From positions 31,682,001 to 31,746,000 of the forward strand of contig OZ024759.1 of assembly GCA_964016885.1 (NCBI GenBank): a stretch of DNA of 64,000 nt, read 5' to 3'. A program made the translations under genes and the position numbers. Source of the stretch: Eledone cirrhosa. Its lineage: Eukaryota. The notes beneath the pieces are model-generated. The model made no database searches. It was not told the origin of the DNA and saw nothing but the letters and a program-made list of their open reading frames with translations. Within the stretch, counting starts at the first letter, position 1, and each line of letters begins with the position of its first letter. Of the stretch, positions 28,148 to 61,677 are shown in pieces.

Positions 28148-31100
28148 CACATACACTTACACACACACTCATGTGTCTATAATGTTTATGCTTTTGTAAT
28201 TTGTTAGGTGATGCAAAGAAGACCTCAGCTAGTCGGTCATCATCGCGGCAGTCCTTAGCCAAAAGTGCACCCAAAGGTAAAGGACGGCAGAGTAGAGGAG
28301 TTGGAGAGGAGGAGGAGGAGGAGGAGGAGGAAGAAGTAGAAGAAGAAGAGGAGGAGAAAGAGGAGGAAGAGGAGGAAGTGTCTGAAGAAGAGGAGGTGGC
28401 CACCCCCACCGTCACTGCTGTGAAAGGGCGGAGCCGGTCAAGAGGTCAGCCCGAAGTTAAAGACACTACACCCCAAGTCCGGGGTGGTAGAGTGGGTCGA
28501 TCCCAAGCTGCAGCAGAGAAGAAGACCCAGAAGGCCAGGTCTGCAGCTGCCAGTAAAGAGGAAGAGGAGGAGGGGGCTGGAGATGAGCAAGAAGAGGAGG
28601 CAGAAGAAGAGAAGAAGAGTAAAAATCAAAATCGGGCTGGGTCGAGGAGTCGGAGATCAACGGGTCGGAAATTGGAGGATGTAGTGACGGAGGAAGCACC
28701 AAAAGGTAGAACAGCGAGATCCAGAAGTAGGGGCCAGGGGAAGAAAGCTACAGAAGAGGACGGCGACAACAAAGATGCCGATGAGGAAGCGAAGGAAGCT
28801 GTTGCTGAAGTGCCCACGGGGCGCTCTTCTCGAGCGAGAAGCAGGGGACAATCAAAGGAACAGGGTGTGGTTAAGTCGGTGATGCCAGAGCTGGAAGTGG
28901 AAGAGAAAGGGAAAGCAACAGAACCAAAACCACCAGAGACAGAGAAGATAGCCGGCAAAGATGCCAAGCAGGAAAGTAAAAATAAAGAGGTGACCGATGT
29001 CGACCAAGTAATTGATGCTGGTCCGGAGAGTGCGAAGAAGAGCAGTGATGCTGACATAGTCGTAAAATCTGCTGAAGACACGGAGCAGTTCAGTTCAGAT
29101 CAGAAATCTCGCAAACGGATGGCAGGTGATGTTGAAAAGTCACCGGAGAGTGTCTCGCCGGCTTCGAAAAAGAAGCGTGTTGCTACAGGAGGCGCTGCTG
29201 TTGCTCCTGCCACCACAGAGGTGATGGTCACCCCAGCAAAGGGCTCAATCTCCCCAGCAAAGGGCTCAATCTCCCCAGCAAAGGGCTCAATCTCCCCAGC
29301 AAAGGGCTCAATGACGACTGAAGTTGCTCTTGTACCAGATGATAAAAAAGAGGGTGCTGTTGAGGTTGGCAAGGACAAGGAGAGTAGCGCTGATGAGAAA
29401 AAGCTAAAGTTGACCGATCCTGAGAAGAAATCTACCGAAGGAGAAAAGGTACAACAGACGCCAACATTTGGAAAGACTTCAGTGTTTTCTGAATCGGCGA
29501 AAGCAACGGAAAGGATTGAAACTGACATGGAAGTGGATGTTGTGGAAAGTCCGGCAAAGGTGTGTCAGGTGCTGTCACCCAAGAAAACTCCCACAAAGCA
29601 ACCTCCTGTGGCGGCGGTGGTTTCGTCACCAACCAAGAAAGCTGAACCGCAAGCAGCAGCAGCAGCAGCAACAACAACAGCAACAGCAACAACAACAACA
29701 ACAACAACAGCAGCAACAACTACCACCACTACCACTACTACCACCACCACCTGTGCTGCTACTATTCTAACAAGTAAACCAACAGAGGCAACAGTTAAAG
29801 TGAGTCCCCCGTCAGCCGGGGTTATTGATCTGTCGCGGAGTCCGGTAAAGCACCAGACAGAAGTTAACATATCAAAAGCACCACCTGTAGCAGTTGCGCT
29901 TCATGCATCGTTAGGGCCTGCACAACAAAAACAGAAACCAGGGGAGTCTCCGTTAAAGATGACCCCTAAGTTGCCTGTGAACCTTACGAAATGTTCAGAA
30001 CCAGTAAAAACAGTTTCTAAATCAGAGCCGACTGTAATTGCAGCGAAATCTTCCCCCACCCCAGCAGCCTGTGTTCCTAAAGCAGTAGAAGTGTCTGTTG
30101 TGTCATCCTCATTGACTAAACCTAATTCCCAGGCTGTTTCTGCCAAACCAATCCAAGGTGCCCCTCCTAAGTTGTCATCACCAACAAGATCTGAATCTGT
30201 TGTGACCAGTCGAGCTGCTGTAGCTGCACCACCAGTAGCCAGCAACGCAGGGGTGTTAAAACCTCACCCCCAGCCGTCTGATAAAACTGTCAAGCCCTCT
30301 ATAACTCAACCTCTCAGCATGGTTAGCGCAAAGACCCCTGTCATTCAGGCTCCAAGTGCCAAGCCTCTTGTTGCCGTGGAGAAGACTCCACCACCACCAC
30401 CACCAACAACAAAAATCACAACAGCAACAAGTCCCAATGTGACTTCGTCCCCTTCGAAGCCTCCTGCAGTGCCTTGTGTTGGCAGTTTCCCTGCTAAATC
30501 CCCACTAAAGCCTGAACTTAAGCCACACAGTCCTTCTATTATGGCCTACTCACCACCTAAACAACATTTCAGTGAAACAGCTTCATCTGGATCTCCCATC
30601 AGATCTCACAATGTCACCATGCATGGCTCACCTGTTAAGCTACCAAATCCTGTCACCTCCACTTTCTCACCTGCCAAGTTACCCGATAAAACGTCGTTAC
30701 CTCAGAGACCTCCTGAGGGAAAATCACTAACGATGCCACCGAAGACAACAGGTGTCGATTTATCATCAAAGCTACCAGGTCACAGTTCGTCACCCCAGGC
30801 CCCCAAGATAATGGGTTACTCATCTTCACAGGTACTACCTGTGAAATCCCCACCTGGCCATCACAGCACTTTGTCGGCTGTAACTACAAAACCTGGCAGT
30901 GTTGAAGCTTTTCCAGGAAAACCTTGTCCAACTCCGATGGGTTCTGCCAGGCCCACTGAATCAATGTCCATGGTTTCTAATGTAAAAAACCCACCTCAGT
31001 TTTCACCAAAGGATAAACAGCCAATTTCTACAAGAATACCAGCTACTGGGGTCATTACTGGAGGTTCTATTGTTGCACGAGACATAAGCCCTTCACAGAC

Positions 31101-34100
31101 CCGAGATATGTCAGTGAAACCGCCTCATGCTGGTTGTACTTCACATCCTATATCGATACCTCACACCGGTTTCTCGAAATCAGCTATGCCAGCGCCTGCC
31201 CCCCTTTCTATGTCCACCTCACACCAAAGGGTACCTATGAATAAACCAAGCCCGGATTTCTCTGCCGGTAAACCAACCGTTGCAACTTCATCCCCGACTA
31301 AAGTGACTCTGAAACCAAACAGCCCAGTAACAGATGGGAAGCAACATCCAGTTGCTATGCCTTCTTCAATGCTTATTAAAACTGGACCCCAGCATATCGG
31401 TTCTCTTCGCGGCAGAGTACTTCCTCCTGCGCAGATGTCTGTGAAACCAGTTTCTACCACTGGCCCTTTGTTGTCAACCACACACGTCGATACGAAGCTG
31501 GCCCCTAGTACCACTGCCGAACAACACAAGCAGCAGCAGGGCAGCAAACCTTACTATTCAGACAAGCCCTCACAGCATGTGACTGGATCGTCAATGAAGC
31601 CTATCTTGCTATCTGATGCAGCCCAAACAAACCCTGTCTATTATTCGTCATCATCCAAGCCGCCAATGTCGACATCCGACATGTCAGCCAGCAAGTCATT
31701 TTCTCCAACATTCCCTTCGAATCCAATGCTTATGTCCGCAATGCCAAAGACCCCTACATCTCCAGCTGATAGTGCCGCCATGTCACGACACATGGGAACA
31801 ATGTCGCCGAAACCGGTCACCCCAGAAGCACATCATACCAGTGCTGGTTTTGCCCGGCTTCCTGGCAGCCCATCTCTAAGTATTCCTGCATCTAAACCCC
31901 CCATGGCCCATTCAACCAAACCCCAGATTACTCATATGACAGGTGTGGTTACCTCCAAGGCTGCAGTTGCTCATGGTACCAGCATTTCATCTGGTAAGCC
32001 CCAAATTACTCACATGATGGGCACAGTCCCTCCAAAGGTTTCATCTCCAACCCCAATCCTCTCTAAACCCCCTGTCACCCACATGGCCGGGGTCGCTTTA
32101 CAGAAACCACAGGTGACTCACATGGCTGGGTTAGCACCCCCAAAACCTCAGGTGCAATCCACTGAAGGTGGCCTTTTATCAAAGCCGGTTGTTTTACACG
32201 CTGTGGGTTCAGCTGCGAAACCGATGCCAGGGCACCCTTCTGGTCAGTCCCCTTCACTGGGACTGTCACCAAGCAAGATGGACATGTCACACGGAAGCAA
32301 CACATCCACAGATTCAGACAAAGCAAAGCCTTTACAAGAGAAGTCTCAACCCCAGCCTTTTCCCGGCGTGGAATACTCCAAATATATGTCTCCAGTGAAG
32401 AGTTCTGATGCTGGTTGTGGAAGGTCGCCTGTCGATATGACCCAGAAGCCTTCCTATGGTGGACATTACATGTCTAAATCTGAGGGACCACACTCATGCA
32501 TGGCTCCCAGGCCACAGGCCTCGCCAGTCAGCTATGCTAAAGGTTTTACTTTAGAACAGAAATGTGAGCAGCTGCAGCAGCATCCCCAGAAGTCAGTTGT
32601 TCAGACAGTGCGAGCGTCGGAGCCTCAAGAAGTTAATCTGTCTGCCAATAAACCCAAGACTCTTTTGCCTACACCTAGCAACATGGATCAATACAGGAAG
32701 GACGCGGTTGATTTAAAGTCATCTCCAGCGAAATCCGCAACCAACAGCCAAGACTGTTTCAAAATGAAATCGACAGTCCCAGAAGCTGGCATAGTCGCAG
32801 GTAAACCACTCAGCGGATCTCATGACAAAGTGCCTAGTCCAGCAGTCGTATCGAATCCAAAGACTGGGGTTCCGATAACAGGTTGTGGAACACCGACTGT
32901 TGTAACCAGCGGCGGCCACGACAACAGCAAAATGATGATGATGTCAGCGAAAACTCAGCATTTCACAGGAGGCCCTGTAAATACACCTTCACAACTTAAC
33001 AAGCCTGCACACCTAGCAACACCGAGTCATCCAGTCAGCACTTTTGCCCCCACAAGTGCTCCTACCCTGCCTCTTTCTACATTAGTTACTTCGTCATCTT
33101 CATCCTCGTCGTCGCCTTCGTCGGGGCCTCCGAAAGCTACTTCTTCTGTCGACGTCATCAATGGCACTAAGATGTCAACAGAATCTCAACAAGTATGTGA
33201 TCTAAGCAAGAAGCGCAAAGCCGATTCGTCAGAGAACGACCCGCACAGCTCGAAAAAGGCTCACAGTGCCGAGGAAGAAGCAAATCTGGTTGCTAACGGC
33301 CAGAAAATCAGCGGAAGTTCTCAGCAAGCTTCGAGGGTCACTGTTGAAACCAAAGTCCAGAAGTCTGAACCTATGGAGGTTTCTCAATCCGTTAGCAGTA
33401 GTAGTTGTAGTAGTAGCAGCAGTAGTAGTAGTAGTATTTGTGGTACTACACAGAGCAGCTCAAATGTCGATGCTTTACTCAAAGACTATGTTGTTGTCAA
33501 TAAAGATGATGTCCCTGCCAAAGACAGCGTCGAAGTTCGGCAGTCGCTGCCCAAGTCTCCTCCTTGTAGTAACCCCCCCAAACCCCAGTTGAAGCATCCA
33601 CTGCCTACGTCTCAGCAGAGCACAATGCCCCCTCAGTTGCCTAAACCCCCAGCAAGCTCGGCTGGGCTGATGAGTTGTGGTCCTTTAGCAGGAAGTAGCC
33701 CTAATAGAGACACTTTGCTCAGTCGCACTTTTAGATTTAACCCAACCCTCCCCAACAACACAATTATGGACAAGAGCAGGCAGTTCAGTGTAGTCTCGTA
33801 CAATATACTTGCCGACTGCCATTTCAACAAGCTTCTGAAAGACAGATATCCTGCTGAAGAAAAGCAATTTCTGGAGCTCCCAGCTCGTCACAAACGGTTA
33901 ATGGCTGAGCTATCCTACATTGATGCTGATGTTGTATGTTTGCAAGAAGTGGAACCGGAGTACTATAGCAAAACCCTCTCTCCTGATATGCAAAAGTAAG
34001 TTGAAATTCATTATTCTGTTTTGTTAATTCTTAATGTCCTGTATCGCATGAAATCAAAATCTTGAAAAAAACAAAACATCACAATGATTGCATCACAGTA

Positions 34101-43545: not shown

Positions 43546-50719
<7,174 letters not shown>

Positions 50720-52654: not shown

Positions 52655-53635
52655 CATTGCATAATTTCGGAAACATTTTTTCACGCTCAGAGTTGCTGAA
52701 GAATAGAACAAACTTCCTGCATCAGTTGTTAGCTGTCGAGACACTGCATCCTTTAAAACCTCCATGGAACAAACTCCCTGCATCAGTTATTAGCTGTCGA
52801 GACACTGCATCCTTTAAAACCTCCATGGAACAAACTACCTGCATCAGTTATTAGCTGTCGAGACACTGCATCCTTTAAAACCTCCATGGAACAAACTCCC
52901 TGCATCAGTTATTAGCTGTCGAGACACTGCATCCTTTAAAACCTTCATGGAACAAACTCCCTGCATCAGTTATTAGCTGTCGAGACACTGCATCCTTTAA
53001 AACCTCCATGGAACAAACTACCAGCATCAGTTGTTAGCTGTCGAGACACTGCATCCTTTAAAACCTCCATGGAACAAACTACCTGCATCAGTTATTAGCT
53101 GTCGAGACACTGCATCCTTTAAAACCTCCATGGAACAAACTCCCTGCATCAGTTATTAGCTGTCGAGACACTGCATCCTTTAAAACCTCCATGGAACAAA
53201 CTCCCTGCATCAGTTATTAGCTGTCGAGACACTGCATCCTTTAAAACCTCCATGGAACAAACTCCCTGCATCAGTTATTAGCTGTCGAGACACTGCATCC
53301 TTTAAAACCTCCATGGAACAAACTCCCTGCATCAGTTATTAGCTGTCGAGACACTGCATCCTTTAAAACCTCCATGGAACAAACTCCCTGCATCAGTTAT
53401 TAGCTGTCGAGACACTGCATCCTTTAAAACCTCCATGCTTCCTGAGATTCGCCAACACTACACCTAATATTCCCCCTCCATACACACACACACACACATG
53501 TATATCATGACTCATACACTATTCACTTCCCTGACATTTGTATATTATTCTAAGTACTATACATGCACCTTTGATGAGTTGTAGTGCACCTGAGCACTGT
53601 ACACTGTACACAGTAATTTCATTCATTATTATTAT
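52655..53635 (+). mobile_element. CR1/L2-like LINE 3' end with internal 61-bp tandem amplification; second 3'UTR copy at ~53980-54140
   Basis: HFFTLRVAE..NKLPASVVSCRDTASFKTSMLPEIRQHYT* resembles the CR1 ORF2 end FF..RV...WN.LP..VV....L..FK; (ATT)n tail. Confidence 0.7.
52706..53437 (+). repeat. Tandem array, 12 x 61 bp, nearly identical units
   Basis: Unit ctccatggaacaaactccctgcatcagttattagctgtcgagacactgcatcctttaaaac. Confidence 0.95.
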
Positions 53636-54803
53636 ATGTGATAACCCGTCTAACCCATCCAGCTGGATCAGTTGGAGACAATTGCTTCTGACAGGACCTG
53701 TTGGAAGGAGTGTTTGAGGACTCCGCCCCTCCCCCCTCTCAGGAATAAGTGACTGAAGAAGACAAAGAAGAAGAGAAGAGAGAAAAGAAACACTCAGTTG
53801 TCGTTTTTGCAAATCTTTATTTCCCACTGAATCGTCTGACGAGGGAAATTGGAAATCCTGCAATAGTTATGTTTACCAAATAAATCTCTATCTGAAGGAC
53901 TGAGTTCACAAGTCCCTGTTGTAAGTATACAAATGGAATAACCAGGGATACAAGATAGACTGATGCAATAAGATTTAACTAAATATCCCCCCTCCATACA
54001 CACGGACACATGTATATCGTGACTCATACACTGTTCACTCTCTTCACATTTCTACATTATTCTATGTACTATACATGCACCTTTGATGGGTTGTAGTGCA
54101 CCTGAGCACTGTACACATTAATTTCATTATTATTATTATTATATAAAAATTAAACAGATATTTTATATTTCGGAGGTGAACTTGTCTGGCAAATGACTTG
54201 ATCTAAGATCATGGTGTGTTGAAACTAAAGCAATTATATTGGGGAAAGAGTCATTTTAGCCACACTTGTACATGTCTGGCAAGTGATTTGATCTGAGAAT
54301 GTGTTATGTTGAAACTAAAACTAGTTAATCATTTTAGCCATCCAAATAACACACACAAAAAGCTGTTAAGTTCACTTTACATTTATTCGTTGGTGTCAAC
54401 ATTTTCGTCGTGCTGCTGGCTACCTGGTCGATGATACGGCTCTCTGTAGAGATTAAAAGAACCTAAGTCAAACTCACAGGTACGTTTATGTAAATTTTTA
54501 TTTCAGGTAGATATGAGGGTAGCGCTGAGATTTAAAACATATTTAATAAACTTTCGGGTGTGTTTTATTCCAGGGTGAATTCATTTGAAGTGGTACATAG
54601 GTAGCGCTGAGATTTAGAATAGACACAGATTTAATGAAATAAGTGAAACTTTCGATGTGTGTTTATTCCAGGACGAATTCATTTGAAGAGGTAGGTAGCT
54701 AGGGAACATTGAGATTTAATATAAAATAGACAGGAATTAAAGTAAAAGTAATGAAACTATTGATTGTCGCGGTTGAACGAAGCGTGTCTAAATTTTAACA
54801 GCG

Positions 54804-55931
54804 ATGTATAATAAGAAGAGAAACAAGGAGGAAAATAATACTGCAGATTCTGTGAATGGAGTGAGAAAGTCTGCGATGAGGAATGTAAAGGTAAATAATA
54901 ATAAAACCAAGAGAAATGAGAAATTTTTGAATGATTTGGTAGAACATTTGAAAAAAGGGGCGGGTGAAATGAATGACAACCGTGAGCGCCGTCTGTCGGT
55001 GGCGACAGCAGTTGTGCCGCCTGGCAGTGGTGAAACATCAACAAGAAAACATCAGAGGAACAAAGGAATTGTTTCTACTGCCGACAATATATGGACTGTT
55101 ACTTGTGGAAACTATAGTAGCTACTGTAATAGTAGTACTAGTAGTGGTGGTAATAGTTGTACTACTGTTGCTAATACTATCACTAATAATAGTAATAGTA
55201 GTAATAATAGCAGCAGCACCAACGCTTCCAGAAAAGACCAGAGCAGGTTCACAACCAAACCGAGGATGTCCAAAGACACGGCACGGAAGAGCACCACTGC
55301 CGTGAAAAAAACCCCGCCCCCCAAAACGCCCGAAGATGACCAAAACTCAGCCGCTTCTTCATCATCATCATCGTCATCATCCGCCAATAACAACAACAAC
55401 AATAACAACAACAACAACGAAGAAAGCAAAGATGTGGATTCGACGACGGACAACAAATCGAATCATGTTGATGGCGAAGATCCACCAGAATTGGAAACCG
55501 AACCAGAACTGGAATTGGAACTATCGGTGTCTTCTCCGATGTCCTTCGGTTCCGTCAACCCTGACACTAACCCCGATGTCAACCCTGATATTAACGACGT
55601 GAGCAATCAAAGCTCCGTTGTTAATAAAACCCAGGAGAATCCAGTGGATGGTACTCGTGAAATAGCCAAACCTAATGGTACAACTCGCAGCAAAAAGGGT
55701 GAGAACATTCCAAAGAGACGTGGAACCCGGCAACTGACCAGAGTTAGGGAAATGGACCGAGAACTGGCCGGCTGGATTAACGGTTATTACACCAATGACA
55801 GACTTGATGAACTTACACGGGACATGATCACAGACAGGGCCAGAGAGATAGCTAAAGAGAAGAACATTTTAGATTTTGCCGGTACTACTAACTGGTTTAC
55901 CAGATTCCTTGGAAGGAATTTCTCAGATGCG
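54804..55931 (+). CDS. Gene 3 large first coding exon: low-complexity region, KDTARKST peptide, CENP-B/pogo-type HTH at the 3' end
   Basis: 376 open codons ending in MDRELAGWI...LTRDMITDRAREIAKEKNILDFAGTTNWFTRFLGRN; gtgagt donor at 55932. The true start could be a downstream ATG such as 55266. Confidence 0.75.
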
Positions 55932-55936
55932 GTGAG

Positions 55937-55969
<33 letters not shown>

Positions 55970-57588
55970 TTGTTTATTGTTAATGTTAATAAATGTTGTG
56001 TTTGATATATTCAATGAAGTAGCAACAAATATAACCTTTAATCACAGAATCTATCACTTCCTTCCTATCTCTGTATCACTTATGGTTTACCAGATTCCTC
56101 GGAAGGAATTTCTAAGATGCGGTGAGTGAGTATATATATATATGTATGTTTATTGTTTGTGTAGGGTTTTGTTGATATATTCAATGATGGAGCGACAAAT
56201 ATAACCTTTAATCACATAATCTATTCCTTCCTATCTCTGTATCACTATTTCTTTCTCTCTCTCCTAGATAGTATCCAACACTTATTTTCTTATTTTCCTA
56301 AAGATTCTGTCATTTATTAAAATAATCTTATCTGTAGTTTAAAAAAAAAAAAGATTAAAGAGAAAAGTCTTAGAAAACCAGACTCCGATAAAATTGGTGT
56401 TTGTGCTGGTCCATGCCTATATATATATATATACCCGAGGAAAGCTTTCCTGATGATTTCTCTCGAATGAAACAGTTCTAGTCCTGTAGAAGCCATTTCT
56501 ATATTAAATATTTATACTCTGCTTTGTATCGAGTACCTTACTTACTATGGTTACCCCCGATTGAACCCGGGATAAACATATATATGTGTGTATATATATA
56601 TATATATAATAGTGATGTTGGTGTGTTTAGATAGATTTAGTGCATTATATTTTTATATTTATAAGGTTCCCAGTAATAATAATTGTATGTGTTTATATTT
56701 CTATTCTGTAAGAATTATTCATTTACTATTATATATATTATTTGTGTCTATATTTTCATTCTGTATTATTATATTCATAGAAAAGTAATAATAATGATAT
56801 ATTTTGTGGTGACAATAAAGTTTATATTTAGATATATGAGAATGTTTTAAAAAAAAAAAAAATAGAAATGAGTACATCACTAAACCACTAAGCTTATTTA
56901 TAAAACTAAATTACTTACAGTTGACGATAGAAATAAATAAAAATATACGAATTATGATCATAATTACAAATATAATTATAAATATAATAATAATTATTAT
57001 TTACCAAGCATGAAATGAATGACTTTTGTAAAATAATAGCAACATATATTATATATAATTCGAAAGTAACTTCCTAAGGTTTGAAAAAAATATCGAAATA
57101 TTTTTATATTTCGTTAATTTAAAAGATTCTTTTGAACTTTCATCAATCGATGTTAAATTACCTTTATTCTAATTTCTTTTGGCTATCGTTTATCTTTTCA
57201 CTCTGTTTTAAACTGACAACTTTCACATCAAAACAAGCACAAAATGTTTTTAAATATTCTTTTATTTCCCCCTAATTTCCAATTTCCACTTTTCGTATTT
57301 GCACAAGTTGTTTTAATTTCTACAGAGACAACAAACAGCAACGTGAAAATATACAGAAATTAGGTTTAACCAAAGCAAAAATATATAAATTTAATTGTAT
57401 AATTGTTTAATTATATTTTTGTTTACTCTACAAGTACTGATAATATTTACTCATGCAAATATACACGATGTTTATATCGCCATGTGCATACACACACATG
57501 TATGTATGTATGTATGTATATATATATATATACACACACACACTATAATCACTCTTTCTCTCTCTATATATATAAACATATACACCTA

Positions 57589-57632
<44 letters not shown>

Positions 57633-59389
57633 GTGTTGTGTATTTGTTTTGCAAGATTCTTGATGTGAAATCGCGTGTTGAAACCTATATTGTTATATTT
57701 GTAGACGGTCATATTACCTGTATTGCCAATAAAAAAACACACGTATCATGATTTACACTTTATCTTTATTCGAGTCGATACTCAATAAGAACATGTAAAC
57801 GAAGCTTCATCGTTTTTTTCTTATTATATATACTCTGCCTGTGATCGAGTGCTCAGATTGGACCATCACCAGTAATTCCTTGAATCACGTTTACTATATA
57901 TATATATTGTTTAACTCTTTAATATATATATATATATATATATATACATGAAAATAGAGAAATTAATATATATTTATAACCGAGTTCAATCGGGGGGTAA
58001 CCACAGTAAGCAAGGTACTCAATACATAGCAGAGTATAAATATTAATACAGAAATGGCTTCTACAGGACTAGAACTGTATCATTCGGGAGAAATCATCAG
58101 GGCTTCCTGGTGATTTCTCCCGAATGAAACAGTTCTAGTCCTGTAGAAGCCATTTCTATATTAAATATATATATAGAAGTGGTTACACAACAGTTAATTC
58201 ACCATACCGAGAACAATTGTTTCACCTTAGCGGATCCTCAGCTCGTAATGGACATGGTTATACTTAACAGGACTGAGTGCTCTACCACTACGGATATTAC
58301 CTTTCAGTGTTCTACCACTATATATATATATATATGGTTGACGGTTGAGGGAAAGAGTACTCGATACCGAAGTAGAGTTTAAATATTCATTTTATTCAGG
58401 CTAAATAGTGAGTCTTGTTACTCTGGAGTTTCACCTGTTTATCACAGGGTCACCAAGATCTATATTAAAACTCGTCCTACGGCCTTTAGTTGCTCTATAC
58501 TTTTATCTTTACCAAACTATTACTCCTATGTATATATATATATATATTTAATGTGTGTGTACACAAAGAAGAGTACTCAATACGCTATATAGTTTATTAC
58601 TGTCACAACCACTAATCAGTTTCGTATACAAACAAAAGCAAGCATACATGTGCCCGATTGCGGGAGTTTGAGCTCTTGTATTTCTTCAATGAAATTCCAA
58701 ATTATCTCCCTTAGTTGTTGTGGCAGTTGATGTTATTTAGCCCTAGGTCAAACCCCTGATTGATCAGACTTATGAAAGATATTCCTGCCATGACAATCCT
58801 TCTTGTTTTTCTATCCTTTCCTCATATATTTCATGAACACCATTATCCCAATGGAGGCCTTCTTTTTTAATAGACGGGGTGCGATTTGGGAGAGCTTTGG
58901 CTGCTGTTTTTAGCTGGTCTAGCAGCTATGTAGATGATTAGTGTTGTTAGATATGAAAGGATCAGAATTTGCAAGTAGGAAGGAAGCTGCAAAAGAGGAA
59001 GACATGGGCAGCACTACACATACACAAACTCGTGTGTGTATGTGTGTGTGGCTGTTTTTTTCCTCTTAGTGGTCTAACTTTTTATTTTCTTCTTTTATTT
59101 CTCGTTCTATCTTCTGCTGAAAGACCAACGTCTGAATCGTTATGACTCTTTCCTGTCTATATCAAGTGTCAAACTAATATATATATATCTTCCAGAAAGG
59201 TATACAGTCCTGTTATACAGTCCTAATGACCCAGAAACATGTTGATTGTTCCTCAAAGCCAGTGTTGAACAAACAGGTGACGATCGGTCACCGGCATGAC
59301 ACAGCTTCTTATCGAGCTCGTTTGTTTACAAACGAATCGGATATTATTTTTAATGTTCGATATAACCCATACGTACATATATATGTGTG

Positions 59390-59427
<38 letters not shown>

Positions 59428-61495
59428 GATATGTATATATATATATTGGGTCGTCAAGTATGAAATTTGTAGAAATTTGGTTGTTTTTTTTTTCTACAAA
59501 TTTCATACTTGATGGCCCAACATATATATACATTTCTGTGTATATATATGTGTGTGTATATATGTGTATTTATACTTACTTTCATTGTAATATATATATC
59601 TCTTCATTGGTAATGTATTGTTTTAGTGTGTTGTTTTCCCATTTACTTTTCACACACACACGCACACAATGAACTGTATCTGTAATTCCAAGGTACATCT
59701 TTGTCAAACACAGAGTCATGCTGAATCCAGCTGAGGATGTCATTAATAGGCCAAGTGTCTGTGGAATACTCAGCCACTTACACTAGGAGTGTACAGATAA
59801 ACAATCTAAAGTAGTGTGAGATCCATCATTGAATCATCTTCCTTCACCACCACCACCACCACGTTCACCACACCACCACCACCACCACAATCACAATCAT
59901 CATCATCATCATCCTGTTTATCTACTCCTCCTCATCATTGCCATCATCATCATCACCATCCTTTTTTTTCCATCCCCACCTTCATTCCCCATCACCACCT
60001 CCTTATCATCATCATTGTCATTGCCATCCTCTTCCTCATCATTGACATCACCATCCTTTTCTTTCCTCTCTATAATCACCATTCTCCTCACCACCATCAT
60101 CATTACCATCATCATCATCATCTCTGTGCTCCTTGTATCTTCTGCCATCATAATCACCATCCTTCTTTTCCTCATCATCACCATCATCCTGATGCCTGCA
60201 CTATATAGACAAGTTCCCTCCAGTACAGTTTCCTTCCACTTTTTCATTTTACTGTATCCTTTCCTTTGTGAAGTTCAGTAGCCTGAGAGAAGCCATTACT
60301 ACTTCTTTCTACACACATCTTCCTTGGTCTTCCTCTCCTGCAGCTTCCTTCCTACTTTAAACTTCTGGCATTTTCATCTCATTAAATCTTTCTCTTTTTT
60401 TTCTCTCTTTTGCAGAGTGTTAGTAAACAACTAAAAATGCTTTCTTTTGCAAATCCTGGGAAATTTATGGAAGATTTCGATCCAGAACGAAGTGCCAGGG
60501 AAATGCGTAAGATGAATCGCAGAATTTACAGAGAGAAGTATGTCTTTGTTGAACTATTTTTTTCATTTAGTGTTTTTTAATTGTGTTGCTTTAGTGGAGT
60601 CTGTGCTGCTGTATGGGTCTGAGACCTGGACACTGACCAAGAAACTCACTCAGATGGTGGATGGGTGCTACACGAGAATGCTGAGGATGGCTCTGAACAT
60701 TAATCAGTATACACTGAGGATGAAGAACTCAGAGCTGTACGGGAGCCTCCCAAAGGTCAGCTCAAGAGTAGCACAGAGGAGACTGAGGTTAGCTGGACAT
60801 GCTCACCGACATCCAGAGTTGACACTGCACTCAGTGCTCCTGTGGGAGCCCCTGCATGGACACACTGGAAGAGGAAGAACGAGGTTAACATATGTTGATG
60901 CCCTAAGGACAGGCACTGGTCTCTTAGAGACGCAGGACATGGCAGCGATAATGAGGGACAGAGACCGCAAGAGAGAACTCGTCCATCGATCTCGGGGAAT
61001 TTTTCCCGCCCTAGACATTGTGTGTAGTAAGGTTAGTGGAATGGCAATAATCGGTAGAGAGTAAAGTGGTCGTGTAGGTGACACAACAAAAAGTACCCAG
61101 TCCACACTGGAAAGTGGTTGTGTAGGAGATAGGCATTTTTATGGACCACATCAAATATTTGTGGGTTTTTTTTTACCTCTTTGCAGGTTCTCTAAGAACG
61201 TAACCCCCCACAAATACTAGGGGACAACTGTATATCACTGACACTTATTTATATTTCTGTTTGCAGTGTCAAGAAGAACCAGATGTACGATGAAGCCGGT
61301 CGGCTTCTTGATAACAGCAAAGATGTTTGTGACTGTTTGGATGAAGATTGTCCTGGTTGCCACTTCCCTTGTCGCAAGTGTGGCTCTGAAAAATGTGGCA
61401 CCGAGTGCCGCTGTAATCGGAAGTGGGTCTATGAGATGGTGGAGATTGAAGGTACCAATCTAGTGATAAACAATCCCTCCCTTACAATAGTTTAA
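54804..61495 (+). CDS. ARL14EP: Gene 3: ARL14 effector protein (C11orf46)-like with N-terminal disordered region and CENP-B-type HTH; ~492 aa in the minimal model
   Basis: Exons 54804-55931, 60416-60537, 61267-61495 join in frame (optional exon from 59196). C-terminus matches ARL14EP: LSFANPG...RE.R and YD..G.L...DVCDCLDEDCPGCHFPCRKCGSEKCGTECRCNRKWVYE.VEIEG. The link to the first exon is inferred from phase only. Confidence 0.7.
56444..56570 (+). ncRNA. Hammerhead-bearing repeat (family A), intact core, in an intron of gene 3
   Basis: gctttc CTGATGA t ttc tctc gaa t GAAACAG ttctagtc CTGTA gaagc. Confidence 0.68.
57980..58165. ncRNA. Inverted pair of family A hammerhead repeats forming a hairpin
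   Basis: Minus copy ~57980-58103 (CTGATGA, GATAC variant); plus copy 58101-58165 (ggcttc CTGGTGA...GAAACAG...CTGTA gaagcc). Confidence 0.6.
59196..59276 (+). CDS. Possible in-frame cassette exon of gene 3 (KGIQSCYTVLMTQKHVDCSSKPVLNKQ)
   Basis: ttccag acceptor, phase 0, open frame; donor either gtgacg at 59277 or gtacat at 59373. No recognisable homology. Confidence 0.3.
60416..60537 (+). CDS. ARL14EP: ARL14EP-like exon (SVSKQLKMLSFANPGKFMEDFDPERSAREMRKMNRR)
   Basis: Strong pyrimidine tract + tgcag; gtatgt donor; resembles ARL14EP LRSLQFTNPG...REKRRL. Confidence 0.88.
60585..61016 (+). mobile_element. RTE-clade LINE 3' fragment (gene 3 intron); same family at 44760-45005 (-) and 1275-1395 (+)
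   Basis: VESVLLYGSETW...RRLRLAGH...GRGR.RLTYVD; near-identical DNA at the other sites. Confidence 0.82.
61267..61495 (+). CDS. ARL14EP: ARL14EP cysteine-rich C-terminal domain exon
   Basis: CDCLDEDCPGCHFPCRKCGSEKCGTECRCNRKW; ttgcag acceptor; TAA. Confidence 0.94.
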
Positions 61496-61677
61496 TATAT
61501 GTATATATACTCGCATACTTACTCATATGCACACACACATACTTACATACATATACTATCTCTTTTACTTGTTCCAGCCCATCAGATGTAGCCATGCTGG
61601 GGTACTGCCATTACGTGTGTGTTTGTGTATATATACATATATATAATGTAACACACACACGCACATATGTGTGTGTG

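Follow-up and report, generated by a model that had tools for sequence, protein, structure and literature searches.

Structure of the gene

The window analysed is a stretch of 64,000 nucleotides of Eledone cirrhosa DNA. The exons 54804-55931, 60416-60537 and 61267-61495 form one gene, which codes for a helix-turn-helix (HTH) domain followed by the ARL14EP core; all features described here are on the + strand. Exon A (54802..55931) is preceded by a likely AG acceptor at 54800-54801, and from ATG 54804 there are 376 open codons up to the phase-0 GT donor at 55932, downstream of which the reading frame enters (TA)n. Either ATG 54804 or the in-frame ATG 55266, where the Octopus database proteins begin, is a candidate start codon. 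The N-terminal part of exon A is low-complexity and poorly conserved. The HTH is located at the 3' end (55716..55931) and consists of a basic arm and a three-helix domain of the CENP-B/Tc5 type; the Pfam HTH_Tnp_Tc5 match spans 55749-55919, and the codon for the Arg equivalent to CENP-B Arg125 lies at 55902-55904. Intron 1 (55932..60415; GT-AG, phase 0) is repeat-rich. The acceptor AG ends at 60415, so that, as the initial annotation had stated, a phase-0 donor after the HTH faces a phase-0 acceptor at 60416. Exon B (60416..60537) codes for the first half of ARF7EP_C. Intron 2 (60538..61266; GT-AG, phase 2) contains a very high-copy fragment at about 60590-61060 with no Pfam match, which we take to be a LINE 3' end from its resemblance to one. 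The coding part of exon C (61267..61495) contains the cysteine-rich domain (CRD, 61328-61414), in which human G218 and R236 have their equivalents, and closes with the stop codon TAA (61493-61495); the 3' UTR extends to at least 61555. A candidate non-coding first exon is located at 54400..54479, with a guessed start and a strong donor GTACGT at 54480. CpG o/e is 0.74-1.58 over 54250-55000 compared to 0.19-0.44 upstream, and the depth of run X4 is 1.14 in the bin 54300-54543.

X4 is one of four public runs of the same organism (X1-X4), all from one study. It behaves like RNA (library type unrecorded), and runs X1-X3 read through the introns; a search for runs of the kind RNA listed no RNA run as containing the gene. 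Record 26 of X4 (954 letters, 0 other letters) aligns to 55430-55927, 60415-60537 and 61267-61555. The segments are consecutive in record positions, corresponding to the join 55931->60416, and intron 1 is absent. The record spans both introns, and all coding introns thus have transcript support, which in Eledone cirrhosa is one contig at depth 4.8. This confirms the splicing of the HTH exon to the ARL14EP exons proposed in the initial annotation. The alternative link proposed there, via 59196, was not upheld: because the record positions are consecutive, the candidate cassette exon (59196..59276; 81-nt, AG..GT, in-frame) has no room in that join, and the segment was not found in the orthologue proteins. 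The bin of this segment has a DNA depth of about 6000, compared to about 10 for unique sequence. X4 contigs cover 55063-55170 and 55430-55927 of exon A, with the 5' end outside the read cover; X4 cover is absent over 54544-55031, which is uninformative on the expression of that part.

Pfam found no DDE_1 match in exon A, in the whole gene or in its orthologues. Of 322 inverted pairs, the 25 longest include no clear pair of terminal inverted repeats around exon A. Both results agree with the earlier reading. We applied the criteria for host-transposase fusions of Cosby et al. (bioRxiv 10.1101/2020.05.07.082677): a transposase-derived Pfam domain, assigned via relatives and fold, sits in a multi-exon gene.

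Conservation of the junction

The database proteins of O. sinensis, O. vulgaris and O. bimaculoides have the same HTH-ARL14EP junction. Junctions of the 55931->60416 type are seen in P0001, P0039, P0040 and P0002. P0002, a Logan protein, is found on 117 contigs, none longer than 2 kb; where splicing has not taken place, its read-through forms stop at this very position. A paralogue (B, on C14) has the same architecture and exon phases as the window gene (A). Over 68 codons of the HTH, this one paralogue pair gives pN 0.177 and pS 0.898 (Nei-Gojobori counts only; dS is saturated). Judged by these counts, the HTH is under purifying selection. The introns are repeat-filled and evidently merged ARL14EP models exist in the databases (P0021 with an MFS transporter, P0037 with ERAP1_C), features that would also be expected if a transposon fragment lay upstream of ARL14EP by chance and had been merged with it by gene predictors only. 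The spliced contigs (X4 record 26 and those of P0002) contradict such an artefact, as do the two loci with identical exon phases and the purifying selection, and we consider it extremely improbable.

The HTH domain

HTH_Tnp_Tc5 (PF03221) matches aa 316-372 of exon A with 18.0 bits (E 0.0029), under the cut-off of 22.2 bits. All seven family members scanned give this match; five of the seven score under the cut-off, and two pass it (P0040, 23.4 bits; P0002, 25.7 bits). A profile made from the two in-genome HTHs finds 12 proteins among 1.84 billion representatives, 2 family members and 10 others. Each of the 10 others has a Pfam HTH_Tnp_Tc5 match above the cut-off, and the best of them comprise DDE-less proteins with several HTHs as well as two short fragments. 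Apart from the paralogue, a close pogo relative of the HTH is absent both in the genome search and among these representatives. Upstream of the HTH, a first module (CENP-B_N, Psq or Brinker) gave no Pfam match at E up to 1 (0.5 for the relatives); this region is unconserved and is unstructured in the predicted model. Of the bipartite DNA-binding domain of CENP-B-like proteins and pogo transposases, the second HTH module only is present.

The AlphaFold model of the HTH, calculated with the two in-genome sequences as the only input, has a pLDDT of 83.7. Compared with 48,161 chains, its best fold match is to residues 70-131 of CENP-B (1hlv_A; Z 9.7, rmsd 2.4 over 62; second-best match Z 6.2), with the caveats that, as the tool itself notes, a chance Z of 7-13 is possible for three-helix bundles and that AlphaFold may recall the CENP-B fold. 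The full-length model matches 1hlv_A with Z 8.1. Foldseek places CENP-B first for the HTH model, weakly (E 1.0), and finds 8hfp_A as the sole match for the full-length model; the ESM Atlas gave no usable match with P0004. By sequence, CENP-B in the PDB was missed by phmmer with the orthologue and by the two-sequence profile. The profile that does find 1hlv_A has ten Tc5 sequences among its members and served for residue numbering only. The HTH core W..F..W-x-x-R-F is present, W-x-x-R-F of the recognition helix included, and the Arg of this helix aligns with CENP-B Arg125, which is reported to contact DNA (PMC6721688). The Tc5 matches and the predicted fold identify the domain as a CENP-B/pogo-family HTH, as in the initial annotation, and more precisely as the second HTH of that family. 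The HTH_Tnp_Tc5 fold is common to CENP-B and the pogo-derived proteins Abp1, CAG and TIGD; these proteins and the mollusc CENPB-type factors (PMC10027918), however, retain the two HTH modules, whether or not a DDE domain is present. In a literature search, no pogo-derived protein with an ARL14EP domain was found described. Homodimer prediction with residues 130-317 of the O. sinensis orthologue scored 0.00 twice, in a setting where the controls were not folded, and carries no weight for or against a dimer.

The window HTH is less basic than pogo HTHs, with 14 K+R and 11 D+E as compared to 11-18 and 5-9 for eight genomic pogo HTHs. Relative to the pogo HTHs, S-x-G-W becomes T-x-N-W, two residues are inserted after helix 1, and one or two basic residues are lost after R-F. 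The near-neutral charge and the altered flanks of the recognition helix in paralogue A would fit an HTH kept as a protein or nucleosome surface (for a histone, a LIN-65/ATF7IP-type cofactor or SETDB1) with direct DNA binding lost. Human C11orf46 is reported to contact histone H3 via a region outside the CRD (PMC6739341), so the N-terminal domain may serve a non-DNA chromatin contact. The Arg125 equivalent, the basic arm and the fold are all kept, though, and the HTH of paralogue B is clearly basic (15-16 K+R and 8 D+E), which makes the loss of DNA binding unlikely. DNA binding by the HTH, together with its basic arm, is probable.

The ARL14EP core and SETDB1

ARF7EP_C (PF14949) matches the two later exons with 95.3 and 29.3 bits (cut-off 27), and the CRD matches PDB 8hfp_A with E 6e-23. 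The equivalents of G218 and R236 are kept in 77 of 77 CRD-bearing homologues, the octopod ones included; the numbering was taken from a 260-aa salamander protein, in which C209, G218, R236 and C237 fit the published numbering. In the human protein, R236H is reported to abolish SETDB1 binding (PMC6739341). The octopod protein shares the core and the CRD, with the SETDB1-binding residues kept, with ARL14EP/C11orf46/ARLE-14/CG14464, and at the level of sequence the SETDB1-binding CRD is intact. The SETDB1 gene is located on C3 and has Tudor_4, MBD and Pre-SET exons. It was located through Tudor_4, as the PF01429 genome search missed its MBD; in 8HFP, the MBD exon has its match in the SETDB2 chain (E 6e-7). 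Both H3K9me3 and SETDB1 are reported in octopus (PMC9476566). By analogy with human and worm, the CRD very probably binds the non-canonical MBD of SETDB1. The protein might instead work outside the SETDB1 pathway, for example as an effector of ARL14 in the cytoplasm or as an independent transcription factor that has a different partner; PMC6105299 mentions a cytoplasmic role of vertebrate ARL14EP, and three paralogues would permit a change of partner. Against this, binding of the SETDB1 type has been reported from human, worm and fly (PMC13108219), the residues that the CRD requires for it are in place and the HTH points to the nucleus; we regard such a role as improbable.

Origin of the fusion

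The HTH is present in 4 of 81 ARL14EP homologue clusters, all from a single clade, and ARL14EP in the other clusters is without a CENP-B-type HTH; the architecture is therefore derived and not ancestral. Within the family, 45-63 of 68 HTH residues are identical to the window, compared to 9-22 identical residues when 62-106 N-terminal positions of non-orthologous relatives are aligned. No Nautilus sequence is among the homologue matches. The phase-0 acceptor position of exon B is common to other molluscs (junction table; read-through frames P0096-P0098), and as read from these frames the acceptor is a 'socket' into which different upstream exons fit. The fusion would go back to a single capture of an exon, at the phase-0 intron ahead of the ARL14EP core. 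The capture would predate the duplication into A and B and the Argonauta-Octopus split. Its donor would be either a transposase of the pogo family or a domesticated gene that had arisen from such a transposase, the latter because the nearest HTH relatives are mostly DDE-less multi-HTH proteins. The HTH-ARL14EP architecture is annotated automatically in UniRef; the literature search found no paper describing it.

Proposed function

As this spliced and conserved octopod gene joins a lone transposon-type HTH of the CENP-B/pogo family to a SETDB1 partner, we favour, on balance, a likely role of the protein as a DNA anchor for SETDB1. A single HTH module, in place of two, would read no motif longer than a few bases, and the anchor would thus prolong the residence of SETDB1 on chromatin. 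H3K9 methylation would be biased to motif-rich DNA and not to the ends of one transposon family. Worm ARLE-14 promotes the stable chromatin association of MET-2 but does not determine its localisation, and the distribution of H3K9me2 is normal in arle-14 mutants (PMC6105299).

The initial annotation proposed a host-transposase fusion that could bring SETDB1 to transposon ends or other DNA motifs. The fusion, the HTH family and the intact CRD stand; recruitment to transposon ends is weakened. In a targeting factor of the KRAB-transposase type, the HTH (perhaps as a dimer, or A with B) would read a defined motif that goes back to pogo terminal repeats and send SETDB1 to transposon remnants or to genes that have acquired such sites. 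The recognition helix is the best-kept part in both paralogues and in all species seen, the genome has at least 150 Tc5-HTH loci (455 candidates; two checked have a long DDE_1 frame), octopus transposons are reported to be without 5mC (PMC9476566), and POGK is a reported vertebrate precedent (PMC11887677). However, the first module missing from the octopod gene has, by eye, a counterpart in the pogo-like loci inspected wherever the frame is open, a close donor of the HTH was not found in the genome or among the 1.84 billion representatives, and ARLE-14 stabilises without targeting. Targeting of this type is therefore less likely, and we rate it as rather doubtful.

The available part of Cosby et al. 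(bioRxiv 10.1101/2020.05.07.082677) describes vertebrate host-transposase fusions, KRAB-transposase above all, and does not name the ARL14EP host module; the octopod gene extends transposase capture to cephalopods. In common with the KRAB-transposase fusions and POGK, a transposase-type DNA-binding domain is spliced to a silencing module in a multi-exon gene under purifying selection. The octopod gene differs in that it is an invertebrate gene, has a single HTH module of the two and lacks DDE; its transposase-type part is the upstream exon, no close donor element was found for it, and its host module would bind SETDB1 directly and not via KRAB-TRIM28. In SETMAR, the SET enzyme itself is fused and the whole mariner transposase is kept. 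There, too, a transposase DNA-binding domain is coupled to histone methylation, as proposed for the octopod protein, in which an adaptor is fused and the enzyme is separate. For animals that lack KRAB zinc fingers, the way in which SETDB1 reaches its DNA targets is largely an open question; the octopod gene is a small two-domain candidate.

Other N-termini of ARL14EP

In other lineages, the ARL14EP core appears to be preceded by transposon-type domains of other kinds. THAP is present in 4 of the 81 homologue clusters and is seen in oyster, scallop and prawn isoforms; ARL14EP of most molluscs has a short N-terminal tail only. The vertebrate N-terminus is a Cys/His domain unrelated to the HTH and matches a dispersed transposon-like repeat, which may be Sola2-like; four fragments of this repeat gave no Pfam family. 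Possibly, then, ARL14EP is a plug-in adaptor that has repeatedly been armed, always at the same phase-0 intron, with transposase-type domains (a pogo HTH in cephalopods, THAP in oyster, scallop and prawn, a Sola2-like zinc module in vertebrates), a KRAB-independent SETDB1 route to specific motifs in which the octopod HTH fusion would be the oldest fixed invertebrate case seen, targeting H3K9 methylation by sequence; we put this forward tentatively. The recurrence of such domains at the same core suggests that the so far unexplained N-terminal half of human C11orf46, the product of a neurodevelopmental risk gene, may derive from a transposon and serve to bind chromatin or DNA.

A homology of the Cys/His domains of clam and vertebrates, suspected by eye, is unsupported (hhalign probability 0.5%). 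Searched against their own genomes, the Saccoglossus and clam proteins match ARL14EP loci only, and a word-based search for longer proteins with the salamander N-terminus gave 0 of 99 candidates. The vertebrate and Saccoglossus N-termini are aligned in BLAST and alone are not significant (E 0.1-0.2). In the ESM Atlas, the salamander N-terminus matches unnamed clusters only (0.91-0.92).

Gene structure and splicing

The gene is encoded on the plus strand by three coding exons. Exon A, which carries the HTH, is an open frame of 376 codons from ATG 54804 to a phase-0 GT donor at 55932, and exons B (60416-60537) and C (61267-61495) match Pfam ARF7EP_C (PF14949); these coordinates agree with the initial annotation. 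The predicted spliced product has 492 residues if translation starts at ATG 54804 and 338 if it starts at the in-frame ATG 55266. The window (G000:C20:31682001-31746000) belongs to a genome of 3.0 Gb, and the closest named proteins come from Octopus and Argonauta. A 190-bp local duplication at 56083-56153 repeats the final 39 bases of the HTH exon and its GT donor (89% alike); this copy carries a TAA in the exon's frame, and its decoy donor is apparently unused.

The window was compared with four public sequencing runs (X1-X4), all from one study; the run search listed none of RNA kind. X1-X3 continue through the introns and are DNA-like. A 954-letter contig of X4, whose library type is unrecorded, matches 55430-55927, 60415-60537 and 61267-61555 with zero differences (contig positions 42-539, 543-665 and 666-954), from which the joins 55931->60416 and 60537->61267 are read. 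The first of these, the proposed splice of the HTH exon to the ARL14EP exon, is also read through, independently of X4, by proteins of O. sinensis (XP_029649710), O. vulgaris (CAI9738984) and O. bimaculoides (XP_014786357). The Logan protein P0002 (117 contigs, each ≤2 kb) crosses the same junction; its cluster also includes read-through forms stopping just beyond the donor. The alternative route via 59196 was not borne out, as the X4 contig leaves no room for the 81-nt candidate exon, which sits in a high-copy bin of run coverage. A retrocopy is an unlikely source of the spliced contig because the genome search places ARF7EP_C at only three loci and the HTH at only two, and it is exceedingly improbable that HTH-ARL14EP is an artefact.

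The HTH domain

The CENP-B-type match anticipated for the HTH holds for the family, with Pfam HTH_Tnp_Tc5 (PF03221) found in all seven members scanned and above cut-off in two, but the window protein itself scores 18.0 bits, under the cut-off of 22.2 (residues 316-372, E 0.0029). A profile from the two in-genome HTHs gave 12 matches at E <= 0.001 among 1.84 billion representatives: two family members and ten others (two short fragments and eight multi-HTH proteins). In Pfam each of these ten has HTH_Tnp_Tc5 above cut-off, whereas DDE_1 is found in none of them. The AlphaFold model of the HTH, built from the two in-genome sequences alone, has a pLDDT of 83.7. Against 48,161 chains its best match is CENP-B residues 70-131 (Z 9.7, rmsd 2.4 over 62; next Z 6.2), and the full-length model has the same top match (Z 8.1; next 7.2). 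Since this is the top structural match, the HTH is, by its predicted fold, the second module of CENP-B. The first module is absent from the gene and its orthologues in Pfam scans, the orthologue alignment and the structure model, and the gene has no DDE domain after the HTH, as initially noted.

The HTH retains W-x-x-R-F, with the Arg aligned to CENP-B Arg125, a side chain that contacts DNA according to the review PMC6721688. Against DNA contact, S-x-G-W is changed to T-x-N-W, fewer basic residues follow R-F, and the HTH of this gene is close to neutral in charge. That the HTH is a contact surface for protein or nucleosome we consider improbable.

Predicted SETDB1 binding and proposed role

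The cysteine-rich domain (CRD) matches C11orf46 as solved in complex with the SETDB2 MBD (8hfp_A, E 6e-23). All 77 CRD-bearing clusters conserve the residues corresponding to human G218 and R236; R236H destroys SETDB1 binding in human cells (PMC6739341). The single Tudor_4 locus in the genome, on C3, is followed by MBD (over two exons), Pre-SET and SET-like exons, making up the SETDB1 orthologue (L034-L036, G000:C3:149192001-149222000); in 8HFP, SETDB2 is the chain that its MBD exon matches. With these residues conserved and a SETDB1 gene present, the CRD is putatively fit for SETDB1 binding, and the chance of a role outside SETDB1 is slim.

We lean towards a chromatin anchor for SETDB1, in which the CRD would hold SETDB1, the HTH would hold DNA with a preference for a short motif, and the whole protein would anchor SETDB1 on chromatin. 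This agrees with worm ARLE-14, which doubles the chromatin association of MET-2 without setting H3K9me2 location (PMC6105299). The initial annotation proposed that SETDB1 could be brought to transposon ends or other motifs; the fusion it invoked is real, but true sequence-specific targeting of pogo-derived sites is kept only as an unlikely rival. At least 150 Tc5-HTH loci occur in the genome, but none is close to the gene's HTH (best of eight scored locally, 23.6 bits). A recurrent, KRAB-independent targeting route via ARL14EP is doubtful though conceivable. Two Tc5-HTH loci, L010 (G000:C6:60688665) and L029 (G000:C3:70739390), have long unbroken pogo/Tigger-type frames with DDE_1 (counted from the start of the HTH, 439 and 432 residues); their sequences suggest young elements or domesticated TIGD-like genes.

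Paralogues and evolutionary history

The HTH-ARL14EP fusion is real, under selection and lineage-restricted. Paralogue B (L005:4979-8627, G000:C14:42562978-42566626) shares the three coding exons and their phases, and corresponds to the Octopus and Argonauta proteins P0003, P0004 and P0047. Between the paralogues, pN is 0.177 and pS 0.898 over 68 HTH codons, and pN is 0.139 and 0.084 in exons B and C, with pS ~0.70. In exon B of paralogue B the F-A-N-P-G stretch is no longer conserved, a divergence that may reflect altered function. The third paralogue (L007:4100-4932, G000:C5 about 79389100-79389930, minus strand) is intronless, a single open frame lacking the HTH; it is retrocopy-like, with a basic K/R stretch ahead of the CRD, and has relatives among Octopus and Logan proteins.

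Homologues were surveyed by two word-based, incomplete searches (8000 candidates scored in one), giving 81 clusters, all scanned with Pfam (21 in one batch and 60 in another). The octopod-type HTH occurs in four of the 81. It is missing from the named proteins of gastropods, bivalves, chitons, nemerteans, brachiopods, annelids, crustaceans and deuterostomes; no named squid or Nautilus protein was among the matches listed. In a core tree of 36 hand-picked homologue rows and 117 columns, its bootstrap not fully settled, all eight rows with the HTH group together as a single clade (99/94). The fusion is hence not ancestral, in line with the initial reading. Since the named proteins of the other groups are without it, the HTH appears derived, with a single origin older than the gene duplication and the Argonauta-Octopus split.

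Other modules stand ahead of the core elsewhere. THAP does so in 4/81 clusters (Mizuhopecten isoform X1, Crassostrea virginica isoforms, Palaemon isoforms, which also carry a C4-type finger, and one further protein). The scallop and oyster THAP form departs from the plain isoform exactly where the HTH exon joins in octopods, and an acceptor at this position is revealed in other molluscs by read-through frames. As THAP forms are absent from the listed cluster members of the close relatives Pecten, Argopecten, C. gigas and Macrobrachium, those of scallop, oyster and prawn may be of recent origin or minor isoforms. Another conserved Cys/His domain, outside any Pfam family, is common to clams and freshwater mussels (P0020, P0025, P0031, P0066, P0128). 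A four-Cys segment precedes the core in P0018 (Lingula), and prawn P0110 has a weak zf-C4 match there.

One dispersed repeat of the Eledone genome, present in four broken copies, resembles residues 3-66 of salamander ARL14EP (L047-L050: C15:9822126, C1704:17258, C1:355440708, C4:246416340), with E 1.2e-4, 1.3e-4, 0.05 and 0.37 and 34-39% identity; the copies are 84-91% alike across their longest blocks. The ARL14EP-like part comes first, followed by fragments that by their motifs resemble a DDE transposase and that have no Pfam match. These copies support a putative transposon link of the vertebrate N-terminal domain.

Relation to known fusions

O. bimaculoides proteins are labelled 'HTH CENPB-type domain-containing protein' in UniRef, and a database table gives PF03221 together with PF14949 for P0002; the architecture is therefore already in automatic annotation. 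No publication linking ARL14EP with Octopus was found in a search outside which most subscription journals lay, nor one on an HTH-ARL14EP fusion by titles and abstract starts. ARL14 is absent from the text and five text supplements of an Octopus-covering survey of transposon-derived factors (PMC10027918; figure-only sequences could escape) and from the main text of a cephalopod epigenetics paper (PMC9476566). A vertebrate survey tabulates 55 host domains, among which ARL14EP could be (bioRxiv 10.1101/2020.05.07.082677); further background is in sections of PMC13108219, PMC11887677 and PMC4231638. The octopod gene would be a new variant of the host-transposase fusion: like those known it joins a transposase-type DNA-binding domain, here a pogo/CENP-B-type HTH, to a host domain, which in this case is the SETDB1 adaptor ARL14EP, with function inferred.

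Neighbouring features

Upstream of the gene, four exons belong to a DNase II gene (46040-49650, plus strand), and between the two genes is a tandem array (52706-53437) of a 61-bp unit repeated 12 times with 98% matches. A 1938-codon open frame at 28183-33999, acidic and then Pro/Ser/Thr/Lys-rich, reads as an exceptionally long disordered exon and closes with the first part of an Exo_endo_phos domain (E 8e-5, below cut-off); its gene is presumably CCR4/Angel/PDE12-like.
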